From a virus (Duplodnaviria > Caudoviricetes): a stretch of 64,000 nt of DNA. Shown here piece after piece: positions 3,830 to 40,942 of this stretch. A model generated the notes under the pieces. It saw nothing but the letters and a program-made list of their open reading frames with translations. It was not told the origin of the DNA and did not search any database. The position numbers were made by a program, and so were the translations under genes. The DNA is taken from IMG/VR virus record IMGVR_UViG_3300014732_000001, positions 26,461-90,460 of that record; one strand, 5' to 3'. How positions within the stretch are numbered: position 1 is the stretch's first letter; each line of letters begins with the position of its first letter.

Positions 3830-3910
3830 CATCAACATCTCAGAAAGCATAATTGTAAATTTCTATCGAGAGAGCAGAAGATGATAGAGGAAATTGTAGA
3901 GGGTGGTGTG

Positions 3911-3939
3911 TTGACATTTAGAGGAGGAGGGTGGAGAAT
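3911..3939 (+). promoter_or_regulatory. sigma70-type promoter of control cassette A
   Basis: TTGACA-17-GAGAAT; GTGTGTTGACA context shared with cassette B (33831-33841). Confidence 0.6.
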
Positions 3940-3961
3940 TGGTGGTAGGGAAGAAAAGGTA

Positions 3962-4208
3962 TGGGACTGAAAATCTCCCTATATAGGATCAAAAATCCTA
4001 CACGTATGGGATCAGAAGTCTCTTTATCAAGATAGAGTAATAAGATAGAAAGAACAAAAACGAATAAATAATGAAAGCATCGTGCAAGCACGACAGGTCG
4101 TAGACCAAATGAAAGCTTGTGTATCTGGCTTTTATCTTTTATTATTTTTGTGTGCAAAGAGCGTAAGCGAAGAAAAGAAATACGAAAGGTATAGGATCGT
4201 AAGTCCCA
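3962..4208. repeat. four 17-bp semi-palindromic boxes (cassette A), iteron/operator-like
   Basis: TGGGACTGAAAATCTCC (3962), TAGGATCAAAAATCCTA (3984), TGGGATCAGAAGTCTCT (4007), TAGGATCGTAAGTCCCA (4192); first three spaced 22 and 23 bp. Confidence 0.75.
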
Positions 4209-4236
4209 TACTGTAACCCCAAAGGAGATAGCTTTT

Positions 4237-4362
4237 ATGACAAACCTAATTGTACCCCGTGACCTTCTGCGTTGGATCGATGAAAATCGTGGAAGCCTGA
4301 GTCGTCAGAGCTATATTATAAAATGCCTGTTCAAACTCAAGGAGGTTAGCGAGATGAAGTAG
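4237..4362 (+). CDS. small CopG/Arc-like ribbon-helix-helix protein, 41 aa (not in ORF track)
   Basis: MTNLIVPRDLLRWIDENRGSLSRQSYIIKCLFKLKEVSEMK; AAGGAG RBS; paralog at 34170-34292. Confidence 0.7.
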   Translation: MTNLIVPRDLLRWIDENRGSLSRQSYIIKCLFKLKEVSEMK

Positions 4363-4417
4363 ATTTCTATCAGAAACTCGAAAGCAATAAATTACTTAAA
4401 TAACTGAGGACTTAACT

Positions 4418-4894
4418 ATGAAAGAGGAAACATTTTACAAAATACCAAAATCTCTGATGAAAGCAACTGGATACTACAGCTTAGAGAACGGGAATCCTGT
4501 TATCCTTACGATAGCAGCGAAGCTTGTCTACACCTATATGCTGGACAGGCTTGTGTTTTTCGTAGATAAGCAGAAAGGGCAACATTTTGAGTCACAGCAA
4601 ACAATTGCTGATGCTTGTGGTTTGGAATATAAGGTGGTAGGTAAAATCCTGCGTCAATTTATGGATAATGGGGTTGTTTTTGGTAAGAAGCTGCGTCCGA
4701 ATGGCAGAGGTCAGTGGCGTTGGCATTACACTAAAATCGAAACAGGTCTTGACTTCTGGCAAGGTTCTTCAGAAAATCCTGTCAGGGTTGGGAAAGATTT
4801 TGTTGAACACAAAGCTACTATTCCAGTACAAACAAAGAAAAATCTTGACAGCCCACCATCTTGGGTGGATGATGAAGAAGGATTACCATTTTAG
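4418..4894 (+). CDS. winged-HTH DNA-binding protein (DUF6945-like, from recall), possible replication initiator A
   Basis: FYKIPK N-terminus; HTH-like SQQTIADACGLEYKVVGKILRQFMDNG; acidic tail DDEEGLPF; paralog at 34341-34835. Confidence 0.75.
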   Translation: MKEETFYKIPKSLMKATGYYSLENGNPVILTIAAKLVYTYMLDRLVFFVDKQKGQHFESQQTIADACGLEYKVVGKILRQFMDNGVVFGKKLRPNGRGQWRWHYTKIETGLDFWQGSSENPVRVGKDFVEHKATIPVQTKKNLDSPPSWVDDEEGLPF

Positions 4895-4907
4895 GAGGAT
4901 TTTACCT

Positions 4908-5669
4908 ATGAACTTGAAAGAATATATGCAAATGAAGTACCCAAATAGCAAGAAAAAGCACCTGAACTCTATTGAATTCGATATATTCGGTATCTTAGAT
5001 CACAGTAAGGGTTGGTTCAAACGCAACGAGGGGTTGGAACTTACACAAGAGCAAATTAATAAAGTCTATTTCCGTACAAGCAGTTTACGAGGAAGTAAGA
5101 AAAGCAAAACTCTCGCCCGAATTGCAAACGCCGTAAAAGATTATGAAGTTACAGACAATAAATACGTTTACCTAATGAAAAACGCTAACGAGATGCTTAA
5201 AATTGGGATTTCCGTGGACCCAATCAGACGAGCCAGGAACATTTCAACATCCTCTGGTGTTCCTACGCATCTTGTGGCGTTCTGGAAAGTTGATCGTAGA
5301 GCGGTAGAGGTTGAATCAAAGCTTCTGAAACATTTCAAGCGGCGTTCAACCCTTGGTGAATGGTTCAGTCCAAATTCGTTCTCAATACAAGAAATCGAGG
5401 CTCAGATTGGGTGCAATTTTGAAAGAAAGTTTTTATTGGAGGATGTATATAAAAAGGTTGAGCGGAGCACAGAAAAACACAGCTATGAGCGGGTGAAATT
5501 TCAAACAACTAAGGCAAAGCTTTTTGTAATCCAAGGAATTGATGTATGGGTTCCAAAAGCTGTGATCGAGGTTGAGAAAGACGGTGAACTTGAAACTTCT
5601 GGAACATTCTTGTCCGAGAAGATTTCAGGCTTACTGAAATGTCAAGATTATTTTAGTCAGGGTGTGTAG
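4908..5669 (+). mobile_element. T5orf172/GIY-YIG-superfamily putative homing endonuclease (start moved to 4908)
   Basis: YVYLMKN...LKIGIS.DP..R...I...VESKLLKHF...GEWF motif; GGAGG RBS before ATG 4908. Confidence 0.8.
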
Positions 5670-5678
5670 CAAGTATCC

Positions 5679-5708
5679 TTGACGACGATAAGAATCGTAT
5701 TGTAAAGT
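5679..5708 (+). promoter_or_regulatory. sigma70-type early promoter
   Basis: TTGACG-18-TAAAGT. Confidence 0.55.
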
Positions 5709-5740
5709 ATGCCAAACAACTGATGCTCTTGGAGGAATAA

Positions 5741-6019
5741 ATGAAAGTCACATTTTATAAAGCGCCAAATGGCCACAAAGAAATTCTTAATATTACGAAG
5801 ATCAATAAAGAAGATGAGGAGTTCTTTATTGCTAACGGTGTTAAAATCAGCATGGAAGAGATTGGAGGTGATTTTGTTGTCTATGCTGACACAGGCTTAG
5901 AAAATGAAGATGGAAACCCGGAAGAGTTTATTGAGATTGCACAAGGTCGGAGCTGCGAGGATGTGCTGAAAGCCCTGCGTATTTGCTGTGAAGAATTCTT
6001 GAAAAGCTTGGAGAAATAG
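5741..6019 (+). CDS. hypothetical early protein
   Basis: GGAGG RBS; 92 aa acidic ORF. Confidence 0.8.
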   Translation: MKVTFYKAPNGHKEILNITKINKEDEEFFIANGVKISMEEIGGDFVVYADTGLENEDGNPEEFIEIAQGRSCEDVLKALRICCEEFLKSLEK

Positions 6020-6020
6020 A

Positions 6021-6551
6021 ATGAAAGATGGTGATGTGTTCCACTGGTACTACAAGAACGACATTGAATACCGAGCAAAACATGCTGGCTCTGGCACGGC
6101 ATACTGGTGTTTAGACAATCAGTGTGTATACTGGGAGGGTGTTGGTCTTGTAGACACCTATTGGTCTGGTCTTACTGGTCAATACCTGTCATCCCATGCA
6201 AAAATTCTAGACGAAGAAGAAATTGACCTTGAGTTTGTTTGCAATCTTGACGATGTTGAATTTATTCACAAATCAGATGCAGACGAGTACGACAAAGTAT
6301 ACGATTTGAGCCACCAGCACCGCTGTTACCCGCATTTTGCTGTAGATAAGGGCGTATGTAAAAGTAAGAAAGCCATTCTCACAAAGAAAGAACGGGAACT
6401 CGCAGACGTAAAAAGTGAACTTGAATACTTACAACGTAAGGAGGTGTGGCTCACAGAAGAAATTGCTGAACTATTGATAGAAAGAGACCTTTCATCCACA
6501 AGGATTCTGTGTAAAATAGGGACAAATCAAAGCAATTCCGCAACAACGTGA
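6021..6551 (+). CDS. hypothetical early protein
   Basis: 176 aa ORF, GGAG RBS, C-terminal coiled coil. Confidence 0.8.
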   Translation: MKDGDVFHWYYKNDIEYRAKHAGSGTAYWCLDNQCVYWEGVGLVDTYWSGLTGQYLSSHAKILDEEEIDLEFVCNLDDVEFIHKSDADEYDKVYDLSHQHRCYPHFAVDKGVCKSKKAILTKKERELADVKSELEYLQRKEVWLTEEIAELLIERDLSSTRILCKIGTNQSNSATT

Positions 6552-33835: not shown

Positions 33836-33865
33836 TTGACAGGAGGGGAGAGGTGGGGTTACTAT
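33836..33865 (+). promoter_or_regulatory. rightward sigma70-type promoter of control cassette B
   Basis: TTGACA-18-TACTAT; G-rich spacer like cassette A. Confidence 0.65.
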
Positions 33866-33882
33866 TGGTCATCACTAGGTGA

Positions 33883-34159
33883 TGTGAAAATCTTTCCTAC
33901 ACCATGTGAACAACGTTCCTACATTTATAGGAACAAATGACACAGTAGTAAGATAGAAAGAGAAAGATAGATTTAAGAAAGAGCTTTACTTATAGGAACA
34001 AAATTCCTATTCTTTTCTTTCTTGTATTTGGTTGTATCGGTGCTAGGCTTTTAGAGGTCGAAGACCGATATACATTTTGTTGGTGCAAGAAGCGAGAGCG
34101 AATTAGAAGAAAGATTGTTGTAGGAACAATTTTCCTATATTGTGTGAACAATGATCATA
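33883..34159. repeat. six 17-bp semi-palindromic boxes (cassette B), iteron/operator-like
   Basis: TGTGAAAATCTTTCCTA (33883), TGTGAACAACGTTCCTA (33905), TAGGAACAAATGACACA (33928), TAGGAACAAAATTCCTA (33993), TAGGAACAATTTTCCTA (34121), TGTGAACAATGATCATA (34143). Confidence 0.8.
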
Positions 34160-34169
34160 CGGAGGTGTT

Positions 34170-34292
34170 ATGAACCTAAAGCTACCATTCTTGGTACTAC
34201 AGTGGATTGATGACAATAGAGGGGGTAAGACACGCAAAGCATTTATCGTAGATTGTTTAGTGATGTTGGTAAAAGAAAACAGGAAGCCTTAA
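34170..34292 (+). CDS. small CopG/Arc-like ribbon-helix-helix protein, 40 aa (not in ORF track)
   Basis: MNLKLPFLVLQWIDDNRGGKTRKAFIVDCLVMLVKENRKP; GGAGG RBS; paralog of 4237-4362 (WID.NRG). Confidence 0.7.
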   Translation: MNLKLPFLVLQWIDDNRGGKTRKAFIVDCLVMLVKENRKP

Positions 34293-34340
34293 AACTTTAA
34301 TACTCAGGCTTACCGTAGAAAATCTAGTATGGAGGTAAGT

Positions 34341-34835
34341 ATGCAAGAAATAGATGAACAGTTTTACAAATTCCCTAAAATGCTGATGATGGCAGATGCT
34401 TATGTGAGCAGGAAAACGGGAGAGATTGTTAGGTTGACAGACGCAGATAAGAATGTGTATGTTGTGATGAAAGCTCGTAACGAGTTCTTTGACAACCATT
34501 ACGACAAGCAATCGGACATTGCAGAGATGTGTAACCTTACAGTCAGGAAGGCCGGAGGGGCCATCCGTGAATTTACAAAACACGGTATCATTGAGAGCAG
34601 TAAGGTTTATTCAGGCGGAGAGCACAAGAATCTCAAGTACACCAAGATTCATTGCTTGGAGCTTCTAAGGGGCGAGGGTGAAGGAGGTAAACGGAAACAC
34701 ATACCAATAGGCGTTCTCCCAGAGACAATCTGGCAGAAGGTTGAGAAGAGGGCTGTTATGCCTAAGGTAGTACAACAGAAGAGTATTTATACACCAGCAC
34801 CAAACTGGGACGACGAAGAAGGATTACCATTTTAG
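34341..34835 (+). CDS. winged-HTH DNA-binding protein (DUF6945-like, from recall), possible replication initiator B
   Basis: FYKFPK N-terminus; KQSDIAEMCNLTVRKAGGAIREFTKHG HTH; tail DDEEGLPF. Confidence 0.75.
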   Translation: MQEIDEQFYKFPKMLMMADAYVSRKTGEIVRLTDADKNVYVVMKARNEFFDNHYDKQSDIAEMCNLTVRKAGGAIREFTKHGIIESSKVYSGGEHKNLKYTKIHCLELLRGEGEGGKRKHIPIGVLPETIWQKVEKRAVMPKVVQQKSIYTPAPNWDDEEGLPF

Positions 34836-35140: not shown

Positions 35141-35278
35141 AATAATGTGTTTCAGGAAGCGTTTTAATTGGCAAGGAGTTGTTCCCGTTGGTTTGAAATA
35201 TTTTAATTGTGGAGAGCTTGTCAAAGAGAAGATTTGTGTGTAGGATGTAGTCATCAAATTGTTCTGGAGGTTTTTAGC

Positions 35279-35812
35279 GTGAAACAGAAGATTTACTTGA
35301 TGAAGAATGACTTTGGTTTGCATAAAATCGGTATCAGTTTGAATCCGAAAAAGCGTGCTATGGAGAGGAAGATTAGGAAGAGCTACAAACCACTTCGCAA
35401 TCTTGCAAAGCTAGCAGTATTGATTGCTATGAACAGTCCCGACTATCCAAACGCAATGTCAGCTTTGACAAACAAGATTAATGAGGACCGCAAGCGGCCA
35501 GAGAAGCAGCAGAAGTTTTATGGGATTGATGGTGTTGTCCCCGTTGGTAAGGTGTTCGAGGCATTACAGAACCACAACGACTTGATCCGTGAAGTTTTCT
35601 TTTCAGACAAAGGTGTTGTGTTGCAAAAGTACGATAGTGATATTATGATGCGTGTAATCGAGATTGTTCTTCAGACAGGGAACAGTATTTTGTGCTACCA
35701 TGACTCAGCCTTGGTGAAAGAATCAGCCAAAGAGATTCTGAGGGACGCTATGCGAGTGGCATGGAAAGAGATTCTTGGGGATGATACATTTTGCAGAATT
35801 GAGGAGAAGTAA
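35279..35812 (+). pseudogene. chimeric ORF: T5orf172 N-terminal remnant fused to a family-A/T7-like polymerase palm fragment
   Basis: GTG with GGAGG RBS; KIYLMKNDFGLHKIGISLNPKKRA, then unrelated sequence ending LQKYDSDIM...ILCYHDSALV. Confidence 0.5.
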
Positions 35813-39097: not shown

Positions 39098-40942
39098 ATG
39101 ATTATATCAGGAAAACTTCTTACACCTACAGGGGAGCCTCTTGCAGGCGCAAGACTTCGCCTGACAGCAACAGCAACATTCCCAGAAGTTCTCAAGTTCT
39201 CAACACAAGAAGTAGTGGTTGACCAGCTTGGTGAATATAGCATTGATGTCCCCGTTGGTCGATATCGTGTAGATGTGTGGGAAAAGTCAAGTCGTGGCTT
39301 TGTAAACGTTGGAATCATTGAAGTTAGTAGCTCCACTACAGCCTCCGATATCAACACCCTTCTTATGGTGAATCAGACAAGCATTCCTCGTGATCCTCTG
39401 TTGGGTGTTATTGAAGGATTAGTTGAGTCTGCACAAGAAGCCGCTTCCGAAGTATCCTCTGCAATGCAAGAGCTTGATACACGGGTTAATACAGAAATTA
39501 CAGAAGCTCTAGATGGATTTACTCCTCGTGACGGCGTAGATGGCATCAACGGCACTGATGGACGTGATGGTGCTGATGGCATTACCCCTGTTCTCTCTAT
39601 TGGCACTGTTGTAGAAGGTGAGACAGCAAGCGCCACACTCACAGGAACCACTGAACAGCCAGTAATCAACTTGGTTCTTCCAAGGGGTCCGAAAGGTGAT
39701 GTTGGTGAACAGGGTATTCAGGGACCACAAGGACTCCCCGGAGAAGCTGGTACGGGCGTTGCTAAAGCCCGTACAAACATCCTCACGAAGGGTTTGTTTG
39801 GACGTTACAATGGCTTTACAACAAGCTCTGATTGGACAACAAACATTGTCATGGAGCTTGAATCAGATTTTACAGCCTTGCGAATCGGCATTCCTAATGC
39901 ATTGCCTACGCAGGTGAATGGTATTCGAGTGAGCGTAGGAGTTCTTGCAGCAGCTGTCCCTCAGGCTTGGTTGGTAGATATCAACCCCACTGGTGGATGG
40001 GTGGATGCTACATTCGAGGGGGCCTCCTCTCTGAATGCTCCAGCTCGTATTGCAGCAGATAGATATAGTCTTCCTCTTACAGATTGGCTGAACATCAGAA
40101 GCATTCCTCGTACAGACGGCGGTATTCGTCCTCTGATCATTATGCGGATCGAATATCCAAATGGAAGCTTGCCCTCTGTTCCCTATCTTGGAACAAGCAA
40201 CTGGCGGCAAGCCACAACACCACGAGTAATGAAGACATCTGTTCAGACAGTGCTTGGTGTTACTAACAAAGCTGCATACACTCAGACAACAAACACAGAA
40301 GGCTCTGTCGTTGTCCCTGTAGTGCAATACATTAGTAAGAAGAAAGGTCGTCAGGGATTTATTAGCGGAGACTCCACGAAAGAGGGAGTTGGTGGCAACC
40401 CTAACGGTTATGGCGCTGTTCAGATGGCTTCCTATGAACTGTCCACACCCGACAATCCAATTGAGTATTTCAACGCAGGATTGCACGCACAAGGCCCAGC
40501 AGTTTATAGCAAACGTCTTGCTGATATGGGAAGCTTTGTAAAACCAACGTTCGTTACATATTCCCCTTACAGCGTTAACGATACTGCTGTTGGTGGTCTT
40601 ACGGACGACCAGATTGGACGCATTTATACAAGCCTTGCAGACTTTATGAACGAAATGCGTAATCATCCCAATGCCACATTGATCCTTACAGAGCCTCTTC
40701 CCAATAACCCTGCTTTCAGGGATACAGGAGCTGGAGATCAGAAGCGTAGGGATTTGATTGCAGATTTGGCTACATTTGATGTGATTGTTGCAGAGGGCTA
40801 TGCCGCTGCTTTGAGTGGGGCACAAGATACTGATGGACAAACTTTGATTGCCTCTGGGCTAACTACAGATAATGTCCATCCTAATTTGGCAGGATATCAA
40901 GCCCTCGCACAAATAATTAAGCCAATTGTAGAAAATCTTTAA
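39098..40942 (+). CDS. tail spike/fibre-like protein: tail-fibre N-terminal domain, collagen repeats, SGNH/GDSL esterase
   Basis: ISGKLLTPTGEP...GEYSIDVPVGRYRV (lambda Stf-like N-terminus); Gly-X-Y runs; SGDSTKEG, NAG, VND, DNVHPN..GY SGNH blocks. Confidence 0.8.
   Translation: MIISGKLLTPTGEPLAGARLRLTATATFPEVLKFSTQEVVVDQLGEYSIDVPVGRYRVDVWEKSSRGFVNVGIIEVSSSTTASDINTLLMVNQTSIPRDPLLGVIEGLVESAQEAASEVSSAMQELDTRVNTEITEALDGFTPRDGVDGINGTDGRDGADGITPVLSIGTVVEGETASATLTGTTEQPVINLVLPRGPKGDVGEQGIQGPQGLPGEAGTGVAKARTNILTKGLFGRYNGFTTSSDWTTNIVMELESDFTALRIGIPNALPTQVNGIRVSVGVLAAAVPQAWLVDINPTGGWVDATFEGASSLNAPARIAADRYSLPLTDWLNIRSIPRTDGGIRPLIIMRIEYPNGSLPSVPYLGTSNWRQATTPRVMKTSVQTVLGVTNKAAYTQTTNTEGSVVVPVVQYISKKKGRQGFISGDSTKEGVGGNPNGYGAVQMASYELSTPDNPIEYFNAGLHAQGPAVYSKRLADMGSFVKPTFVTYSPYSVNDTAVGGLTDDQIGRIYTSLADFMNEMRNHPNATLILTEPLPNNPAFRDTGAGDQKRRDLIADLATFDVIVAEGYAAALSGAQDTDGQTLIASGLTTDNVHPNLAGYQALAQIIKPIVENL

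Follow-up and report, generated by a model that had tools for sequence, protein, structure and literature searches.

In phage lambda, dimers formed by the winged helix-turn-helix (wHTH) N-terminal domain of the O protein bind phased dyad iterons of about 19 bp, which lie inside the O gene beside an AT-rich, strand-asymmetric region, and the folded C-terminal domain of O recruits the helicase through P-DnaB. RepB of plasmid pMV158 is an HUH nuclease that nicks a double-strand origin and replicates the plasmid by a rolling circle. Among replisome proteins, SSB, which binds single-stranded DNA, carries the tip DDDIPF at its C-terminus, and T7 gp2.5 and gp4 have acidic tails whose last residue is phenylalanine. 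Here we compare with these and related systems a two-gene cassette found at two loci, A and B, of a 64,000-nucleotide (nt) viral window. The window, meaning the whole stretch of DNA that was analysed, covers bases 26461-90460 of the 90,460-bp Caudoviricetes record IMGVR_UViG_3300014732_000001 (genome G000), rated complete by CheckV; coordinates are those of the window unless another record or locus is named.

The closest described initiators are of the RepA_N kind. The iterons bound by RepA of PLE, a satellite of Vibrio cholerae, are semi-palindromic, with inverted sub-repeats that meet at a poly-A tract, and RepA supports PLE replication only while the cell is infected by phage ICP1, whose replisome is T7-like; the recruitment of the replisome by RepA_N initiators is an open question in PLE and ICP1 (PMC7145576). 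ICP1 itself encodes Odn, a RepA_N-domain protein with a T5orf172 nuclease, which cleaves the origins of PLE and has been proposed as a driver of replicon exchange (PMC8263062).

The kind of module described below is therefore already known, from the RepA_N replicons of Gram-positive plasmids and from PLE. What is new is that lytic-phage genomes carry it, as one to three diverged copies, that an SSB-type tip has taken the place of the C-terminal domain, that a ribbon-helix-helix (RHH) gene is linked to it, and that its purine tract and mini-hairpin core are conserved. No published description of such cassettes was found in the literature, and we know of no account of where replication starts, and with which initiators, in Felix-O1-related phages and in most other large lytic phages.

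Anatomy of the cassettes

Cassettes A and B are built in the same order. An early promoter, three phased dyads, a purine tract, hairpins and a T-rich GTGCAA core are followed by one or more proximal dyads, a gene of 40-41 amino acids (aa) and a gene of 158-168 aa whose product ends in DDEEGLPF. A preliminary description of the two loci, made from the letters of the window, had listed these elements together with a spacing of 22 then 23 bp between three boxes; all the elements lie where it placed them, and the spacing holds in both cassettes.

The promoters are of the sigma-70 type, TTGACA-17-GAGAAT at 3911-3939 in A and TTGACA-18-TACTAT at 33836-33865 in B (plus strand, like every stranded feature of A and B below), and the decamer TGTGTTGACA has its only two sites in the 90,460-bp genome within them. 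The A promoter is context, outside the mobile module, and that of B is retained by a relative, G004, without the cassette. A perfect palindrome, CATCAC-TAG-GTGATG (33870-33884), stands where promoter B is predicted to have its start site, with a counterpart CATCAC-CTG-GTGATG in the related locus L010; it could be a separate operator, for instance for the RHH protein.

The repeats had been read as plain direct boxes. They are imperfect dyads of 17-19 bp with an A-rich spacer, TAGGAT-N5-ATCCTA in A (for example TAGGAT-CAAAA-ATCCTA) and TAGGAA-N5-TTCCTA in B (for example TAGGAA-CAAAA-TTCCTA), which a repeat search recovers as both direct and inverted families, and each cassette has 4-6 copies phased at 22/23 bp. 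Distal iterons 1-3 of A (3959-4027; half-site TA(T)RGGA[TC], A-rich 5-nt spacer, 22 + 23 bp spacing) include the perfect copy TAGGATCAAAAATCCTA at 3984-4000, and a proximal iteron (4190-4211) lies inverted relative to them about 25 nt upstream of the start codon of the small gene. The distal iterons 1-3 of B (33883-33944), with the same spacing, read TGTGAA..TTCCTACA, TGTGAAC..TTCCTACA and TATAGGAAC.., iteron 4 (33993-34009) is the perfect dyad TAGGAACAAAATTCCTA, and proximal iterons 5 and 6 (34121-34160) comprise the perfect dyad TAGGAACAATTTTCCTA at 34121-34137 and a degenerate copy at 34142-34160.

The clustering of these sites is far from chance. The half-site T[AG]T[AG]GGA has 51 matches on both strands of the 90,460-bp genome, and each cassette leader of 280-300 nt holds 6 of them where about 0.16 would be expected. 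A count of palindromes with at most one mismatch was significant for B and not for A, owing to the degeneracy of the boxes in A; counting half-sites decided the matter. The claim that the box consensus differs between the cassettes stands insofar as the variant GGA[TC] clusters in A only (6 of 22 matches) and TAGGAA in B only (6 of 12), yet the difference between their half-sites amounts to one base.

Next to the distal iterons lies a purine-rich tract, which in A (4028-4078) is also AT-rich and carries AAGATAGA and AAGAAAGA motifs and in B spans 33945-33984 (AGTAGTAAGATAGAAAGAGAAAGATAGA...); its position is kept in all A/B-type cassettes and in the cultured phage phiPMW. Two small hairpins follow in A (4078-4106), CGTGC-AA-GCACG at 4078-4095 and GGTC-GTA-GACC at 4096-4106, and then the core (4128-4168), with a T-rich run, GTGCAA at 4152-4157 and the mini-hairpin GCGTAAGC, of the GCGNNAGC type, at 4161-4168. 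The core of B (34056-34099) comprises GGTC-GAA-GACC at 34056-34066, a T-rich run, GTGCAA at 34083-34088 and the mini-hairpin GCGAGAGC at 34092-34099. Across relatives the hairpin stems vary (GGTC/GACC, GGC/GCC, GGCT/GCC), with GNA/GNRA loops retained. The second core element fits the GCGNAGC/GCGNNAGC mini-hairpin class and is conserved in position among the cassettes; GCGAAGC itself is present in three relatives, and L024 has AC-GAA-GT. Priming sites, G4 oric and ssiA among them, are reported to contain motifs of the GCGNAGC class (PMC13037366). An Rfam scan of the window returned zero families.

The two loci had been presented as a twin pair tied to divergent strand switches. The genome holds a third copy, cassette C (locus L004; G000:C1 ~5502-6450, minus strand), outside the window, whose wHTH paralogue at bases 5502-6002 (minus strand; 33% identity, E 3e-13) also ends in DDEEGLPF. 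It has its own, different RHH-type small gene upstream and a leader of about 300 nt, and candidate repeats of the form GGGTAWWTGGGTTAC flank its core. Cassette C lies inside a minus-strand block behind a glutaredoxin-like gene, with no strand switch there. Several relatives likewise carry the cassette within same-strand blocks, and G004 has the promoter without it, which makes the tie to strand switches incidental. Relative to its genes the core of C is inverted, so that the GNA-loop strand of all three G000 cores falls on the same absolute strand, as would be expected of an element acting as DNA more than of one acting as RNA. Some of the AT-richest 60-nt segments of the genome lie in the leaders, that of C at rank 1, that of A at rank 9 and that of B at the 99.6th percentile.

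This anatomy resembles the PLE origin, with about three semi-palindromic iterons, a central A tract and a non-coding region beside the gene, to which the cassettes add the preceding RHH gene, the conserved purine tract and the mini-hairpin core. The iterons of staphylococcal RepA_N plasmids are also inverted sub-repeats around an A tract, although their origin lies inside the rep gene. With lambda O and its origin the cassettes share phased dyad iterons, a wHTH binder (a predicted one here) and an adjoining AT-rich region; the lambda origin, however, lies inside O and is served by a folded recruiting domain, whereas the cassette leader is non-coding and the tip short.

The two cassette proteins

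The larger gene encodes a RepA_N/DUF6945-type wHTH protein, of 158 aa in A (4418-4894) and, in B (34329-34835), of 168 or 164 aa depending on whether the first or the second ATG is taken as the start; the DDEEGLPF ending given for both in the preliminary description stands, while its range of 158-164 aa falls short of the longer B frame. The A and B proteins are 36% identical (E 8e-25). Their Pfam matches, DUF6945, RepA_N and HTH_36, are all sub-threshold, many homologues carry a precomputed PF22182, and PHROG 8102, a 'replication initiation protein', matches the N-terminal part (E 6e-10).

An AlphaFold (AF2) model built from 26 homologues has a predicted local distance difference test (pLDDT) score of 79. 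Strands 18-20 and 27-29, a beta-hairpin extension, are followed by a helix, the helix-turn-helix and the wing, up to about residue 125, and residues 128-147, with pLDDT below 50, appear as a disordered linker. The family profile matches one PDB entry, 4RO3 (E 3e-13), which is also the best structural match to the model (Z 11.0, root-mean-square deviation (rmsd) 3.0 A, 107 residues), and Foldseek gives the fold match a probability of 1.0. Entry 4RO3 is the N-terminal domain of PLE RepA (PMC7145576), which makes this initiator the closest relative of the cassette domain by both sequence profile and structure. The next structural matches are 4PQL and 4PT7, N-terminal domains of staphylococcal plasmid RepA (both Z 8.8), then 5KBJ, a complex of Rep with DNA, and the N-terminal domains of DnaD, and generic winged-helix regulators (MarR, Fur, LexA) match at Z of about 7-8. 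The staphylococcal RepA_N proteins (pSK41, pTZ2162; 4PT7, 4PQL, 4PTA, 5KBJ) and the DnaD N-terminal domain have the same winged helix with a beta-hairpin extension (Z 8.8 over 112 residues). The staphylococcal initiators differ in sequence (about 19% identity), in their Gram-positive hosts and in having a folded host-specific C-terminal domain.

Such a domain is not present in the cassette protein, the model being disordered after about residue 125. PLE RepA too has a folded C-terminal domain, where the cassette protein has the disordered linker and an acidic-PF tip. The 178 fetched members of the family are mostly 100-200 aa long, with a single longer homologue of 314 aa. Searches of Pfam, PHROGs and structures gave no match of the window proteins to nuclease or HUH families. 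The copG-rep operon of pMV158, put forward earlier as an analogue, is consequently a poor one: the gene order is alike, an RHH repressor gene of about 45 aa preceding a replication gene, but RepB is a rolling-circle HUH nuclease and the cassette protein a RepA_N-type wHTH without a nuclease domain. Pfam lists no Phage_rep_O match for the window proteins at E up to 1, and the 'O-like' family PHROG 678 matches them weakly (E 0.01 and 0.08).

All three wHTH proteins of the genome end in DDEEGLPF. The only other protein in it with an acidic run and a PF ending is the gp2.5-like SSB (phrog_112, E 6e-12), which ends in FDDSIPF. The cassette proteins share with the SSB tip the disordered linker, the acidic stretch, a hydrophobic residue and the terminal Pro-Phe, with the difference that here the tip would sit on a predicted sequence-specific binder of double-strand DNA and not on a binder of single-stranded DNA. 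Across the fetched family, 80 of the 178 members (about 45%) have an acidic-PF ending, the remainder mostly other acidic or aromatic C-terminal motifs. Genomes G000, G001, G003 and G004 each encode an acidic-PF protein of 220-246 aa together with PF-tailed wHTH proteins, and G002 has neither; the proteins of G000 and G001 are mutually homologous, those of G003 and G004 having been chosen by size, tail and position only. In A the tail-coding sequence and the ribosome-binding site (RBS) of the next gene (GAAGAAGGATTACCRTTTTAGGAGG) occupy 4870-4899. This segment is identical in A, B and C, the last 26 nt (tail and RBS) matching exactly, against about 50% identity in the gene bodies. A presence/absence profile of G000 genes over four relatives, which sought a partner for the tail, returned structural and small unknown genes only.

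The smaller gene encodes 41 aa in A (4237-4362; phrog_31326) and 40 aa in its B paralogue (34170-34292), the two proteins being 47% identical over 32 residues (E 2e-11). In the AF2 model (pLDDT 93), residues 1-7 are extended and residues 8-17 and 23-40 form helices. A structural search of 48,161 PDB chains gave top matches that are nearly all RHH domains, NikR first (Z 6.1, rmsd 1.3 A, 41 residues), then PutA, AmrZ, Arc (4.9), omega and ParG, the Z values being low owing to the small size of the domain. A PDB sequence search and Foldseek gave no significant match for this protein, and an ESM-Atlas look-up (0.89) is a lead only. Judged by its model, the small protein folds as a ribbon-helix-helix. 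With hhalign, the small proteins of the A/B type showed no relationship to those of the C type.

Relatives, recognition and modularity

Related cassettes were fetched from IMG/VR and from metagenome assemblies. The 15 cassettes of the A/B type keep the same order of non-coding parts, with wHTH proteins mostly 30-60% identical to that of A, bar two near-identical pairs, and the 22/23-bp phase is retained in most scanned cassettes. At least one cassette is present in all five related records searched. Against three in G000 (CheckV completeness 100%), there are two in G002 (96%) and in G003 (100%) and one in G001 and in G004 (both 100%), hence one or two in the four relatives rated 96-100% complete. 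PLE is a satellite, and here one to three diverged copies belong to the genome of a lytic phage.

Among cultured phages, phiPMW of Pseudomonas carries a 40% identical homologue, gp115, that RefSeq names 'replication initiation protein'; directly upstream of it (L001:3850-3965) are three GGACAAAATGTCC dyads and a purine tract (AGAGAGATAGACAGATAGAGATAGAAAA), and it has no adjacent RHH gene. An annotated 'phage specific promoter' of phiPMW lies within the purine tract. A megablast of 6 kb against isolate phages gave no match, and a search for the wHTH family in bacterial genomes gave one match only, on a 466-bp Pseudomonas contig.

The preliminary description had proposed aligning the cassettes across relatives for co-variation of the boxes and the recognition segment, and such co-variation is found in the 15 cassettes, in which the half-site changes together with helix 3 of the wHTH. 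Taking the best 6-N5-6 dyad of each leader in an automated search, the half-site is TAGGAT in A and L005, TAGGAC in L027, AGGGAC in L028, TAGGTC in L030, TA[GT]GAA in B, L010 and L033, TAGGCA in L011, L031 and L032, T[AG]GGAC in L007 and L022, and AAGAGA in L009. Cassettes with the same helix 3 have the same half-site, even across samples, and those with a different helix 3 have a different one. Between A and L028 the ribbon of the RHH protein is nearly the same, while helix 3 and the half-site both differ. A swap within the C type bears on the same question. The C-type cassettes of G000 and G003 are 94.6% identical in the wHTH and about 99% in the proximal non-coding leader, and the RHH gene between them has been replaced with sharp borders (38% protein identity), so that the repeats go with the wHTH. 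These comparisons, from a small sample, favour the wHTH protein over the RHH protein as the predicted reader of the repeats.

Relatives also show how discrete the cassette is. At the B site of G004, the promoter and left flank are conserved up to TACTATTGGT and the cassette is absent beyond. Since the promoter persists there alone, the cassette is a discrete module set behind a pre-existing early promoter. In some relatives (L007, L011, L033) it lies in a same-strand gene block with no promoter of its own and keeps the full non-coding architecture. An element, AGCCTTAGTGCCACGGGGCTT, stands behind the early promoter in two relatives, at the B site of G004 (reverse complement of G004:2100-3350) and in L030 about 560 nt upstream of the wHTH gene. 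In G004, which lacks cassettes A and B, full-length phrog_4756 genes lead both sites (L045:1692-3050 and L046:12854-14119, both minus strand; 453 and 422 aa), and all that the window retains of such a gene is its 3' part, joined to a T5orf172-like N-terminus (35207-35812). This family has no known function or fold match; it may be an alternative occupant of the site or a functional analogue of the cassette.

Nuclease genes adjoin all three G000 cassettes: a T5orf172 gene after A, an HNH gene (phrog_953, E 1e-94) after C, and after B the T5orf172-like remnant fused to phrog_4756. The gene directly downstream of A (4908-5669, plus strand; T5orf172/MUG113, GIY-YIG superfamily) is probably a homing-endonuclease-type gene at the module boundary. 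In the relative G005 the C site is occupied by a gene (L023:1453-2190, minus strand) in which a GIY-YIG/T5orf172 domain is fused to a C-type DUF6945 wHTH. Its wHTH part is 47% identical to the wHTH of cassette C and keeps the tail as NDEEGLPF, and the fusion scores 29.8 bits with DUF6945, above the cut-off; the RHH gene and the origin-like leader are both absent. Together with the T5orf172 and HNH genes that flank the G000 cassettes, this nuclease-wHTH fusion recalls Odn of ICP1. It differs in its reversed domain order, with the nuclease N-terminal, and the wHTH proteins of the window have no nuclease domain.

Function, rival explanations and genome context

We think it probable that the cassettes are replicon modules of the RepA_N kind, each an iteron origin with a cognate minimal initiator, an SSB-tail-like means of recruitment and an RHH autoregulator. 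The earlier proposal of origin/initiator modules that each use their own boxes thereby finds support in homology and comparison, through the RepA_N-type domain, the form of the iterons and their co-variation with the protein. The wHTH protein, probably as a dimer, would bind the phased, A-tract-centred dyads that flank an AT- and purine-rich region containing GNA/GNRA mini-hairpins and the conserved T-rich GTGCAA core. This binding, together with transcription from the early promoter through the purine tract, would open the region. In place of a helicase-recruiting C-terminal domain the protein has a disordered linker of about 35 aa and an acidic-PF tip of the SSB-tail type, which could bring a protein that docks on SSB tails to the opened origin. 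Candidate partners are a T7-like primase-helicase, the polymerase or a host SSB-interacting protein; the genome encodes PolA, the gp2.5-like SSB, ribonucleotide reductase (RNR) and a 559-aa DnaB-like helicase akin to the 'primase/helicase' proteins of phages. For the RHH protein the most likely role is autoregulation of the two-gene operon. Differing in half-site and recognition helix, the three cassettes could act as separate origins. The likeness to PLE would extend to operation with a T7-like phage replisome and to an initiator and origin that form an exchangeable, mutually specific module.

Several results weigh against such a function. The window proteins score 22.9 and 21.8 bits with DUF6945 against a curated cut-off of 28, and 16.4 and 16.7 bits with RepA_N against a cut-off of 30. 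Folded as single-strand DNA, the three cores are not clearly more stable than shuffled sequences (z -0.1 to -2.0), the GCGN(N)AGC mini-hairpin is not enriched genome-wide (26 and 25 matches against 22.7 expected per strand), and the tract is no compositional outlier in purine content; the support for the core is its conservation in position only. Cumulative GC skew reaches its minimum exactly at cassette B, which was rejected as evidence of an origin because skew tracks the direction of transcription; the skew minima at the cassettes coincide with changes of that direction and are thus not independent evidence. Three origins with three initiators would be unusual in a 90-kb genome, and some relatives get by with a single cassette. 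If A and B are orthogonal, this would hang on one base per half-site, and cross-binding is possible at such a distance. Autoregulatory operators, too, would be expected where the boxes are, in the stretch that separates a strong early promoter from the first genes. Finally, the C-type tail is identical even between genomes that share only 22-32% identity in helicase and polymerase, which argues against a phage-specific partner; the partner may instead be a host protein or a conserved pocket.

The position of the boxes leads to a first alternative, in which the cassettes are early-operon transcription switches only and the RHH protein, the wHTH protein or both bind the dyads as operators, forming a roadblock downstream of the early promoter that sets the level and timing of the operon. 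A and B do stand directly behind strong sigma-70 promoters, with dyads filling 300-nt leaders and some of them at the RBS, the small protein has the fold of typical autorepressors, and the general wHTH repressors cited above match the model of the larger one too. We nevertheless regard this account as unlikely. The relative found at the sequence level is an experimentally shown initiator, and its match stands clearly above those of generic wHTH proteins; the full non-coding architecture is kept in the promoterless modules L007, L011 and L033, and conversely the G004 promoter persists without the module. Nor would a switch explain the conserved AT-rich core, the mini-hairpins and the SSB-like tail. 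A quite improbable explanation, in our judgement, is that the cassettes serve conflict or their own spread, either as captured or competing replicons accompanied by homing endonucleases or as origin-binding decoys by which the origins of relatives or satellites in the same cell would be blocked or hijacked, while the SSB-like tail would sequester partners of the replisome. It would account for a presence that varies, for a copy number of 1-3, for the adjoining nuclease genes (T5orf172 after A, HNH after C and the T5orf172-like remnant after B) and for a tail and RBS homogenised among the paralogues of one genome; the G005 fusion at the C site also resembles Odn, a cutter of PLE origins (PMC8263062). 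However, all five related records searched hold an intact cassette, which fits an essential function, and the conservation of the architecture at 30-60% protein identity points to long-term selection on the non-coding part. The near absence of the family from bacterial genomes, with its one 466-bp contig, leaves a satellite or plasmid source not evident.

Going further than the replicon function itself, we tentatively suggest, as an idea still open to considerable doubt, that minimal RepA_N initiators swapped their recruiting domain for a peptide mimicking the SSB tail, and that a lytic clade keeps mutually specific modules which are swapped, multiplied and lost under origin-directed nucleases. 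In that event an origin-bound protein would plug into whatever docks on SSB, the mimic peptide would answer how RepA_N initiators engage T7-like replisomes, and nucleases built from the same DNA-binding domain would be the pressure. Should the cassettes be replicons, they offer a simple answer to RepA_N replisome recruitment, an SSB-tail-like docking peptide, and are a likely phage-side reservoir of replicon modules for satellites. They would also provide a natural set of matched initiator/iteron pairs that lie 1-2 bases and a few helix-3 residues apart. The simpler version carried by the cultured phiPMW, a phage of Pseudomonas putida, makes these ideas testable at the bench.

Elsewhere in the genome, other genes show signs of insertion. 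The PolA gene (G000:C1:21496-24516, minus strand, outside the window) contains roughly 330 inserted aa with matches to PHROGs of unrelated enzymes (thymidylate synthase, RNR and PhoH), probably an intein. Also outside the window (G000:C1:7267-10163, minus strand), the large subunit of RNR is split over two open reading frames (ORFs), separated by a third ORF of 349 aa that belongs to no known family, and the split may reflect an intron or a homing-endonuclease insertion. Within the window, a 614-aa ORF (39098-40942) considered as a terminase was rejected as such; it matches SGNH/GDSL hydrolase-type tail proteins, with 37-49% identity to tail proteins of Pseudomonas and Providencia phages.

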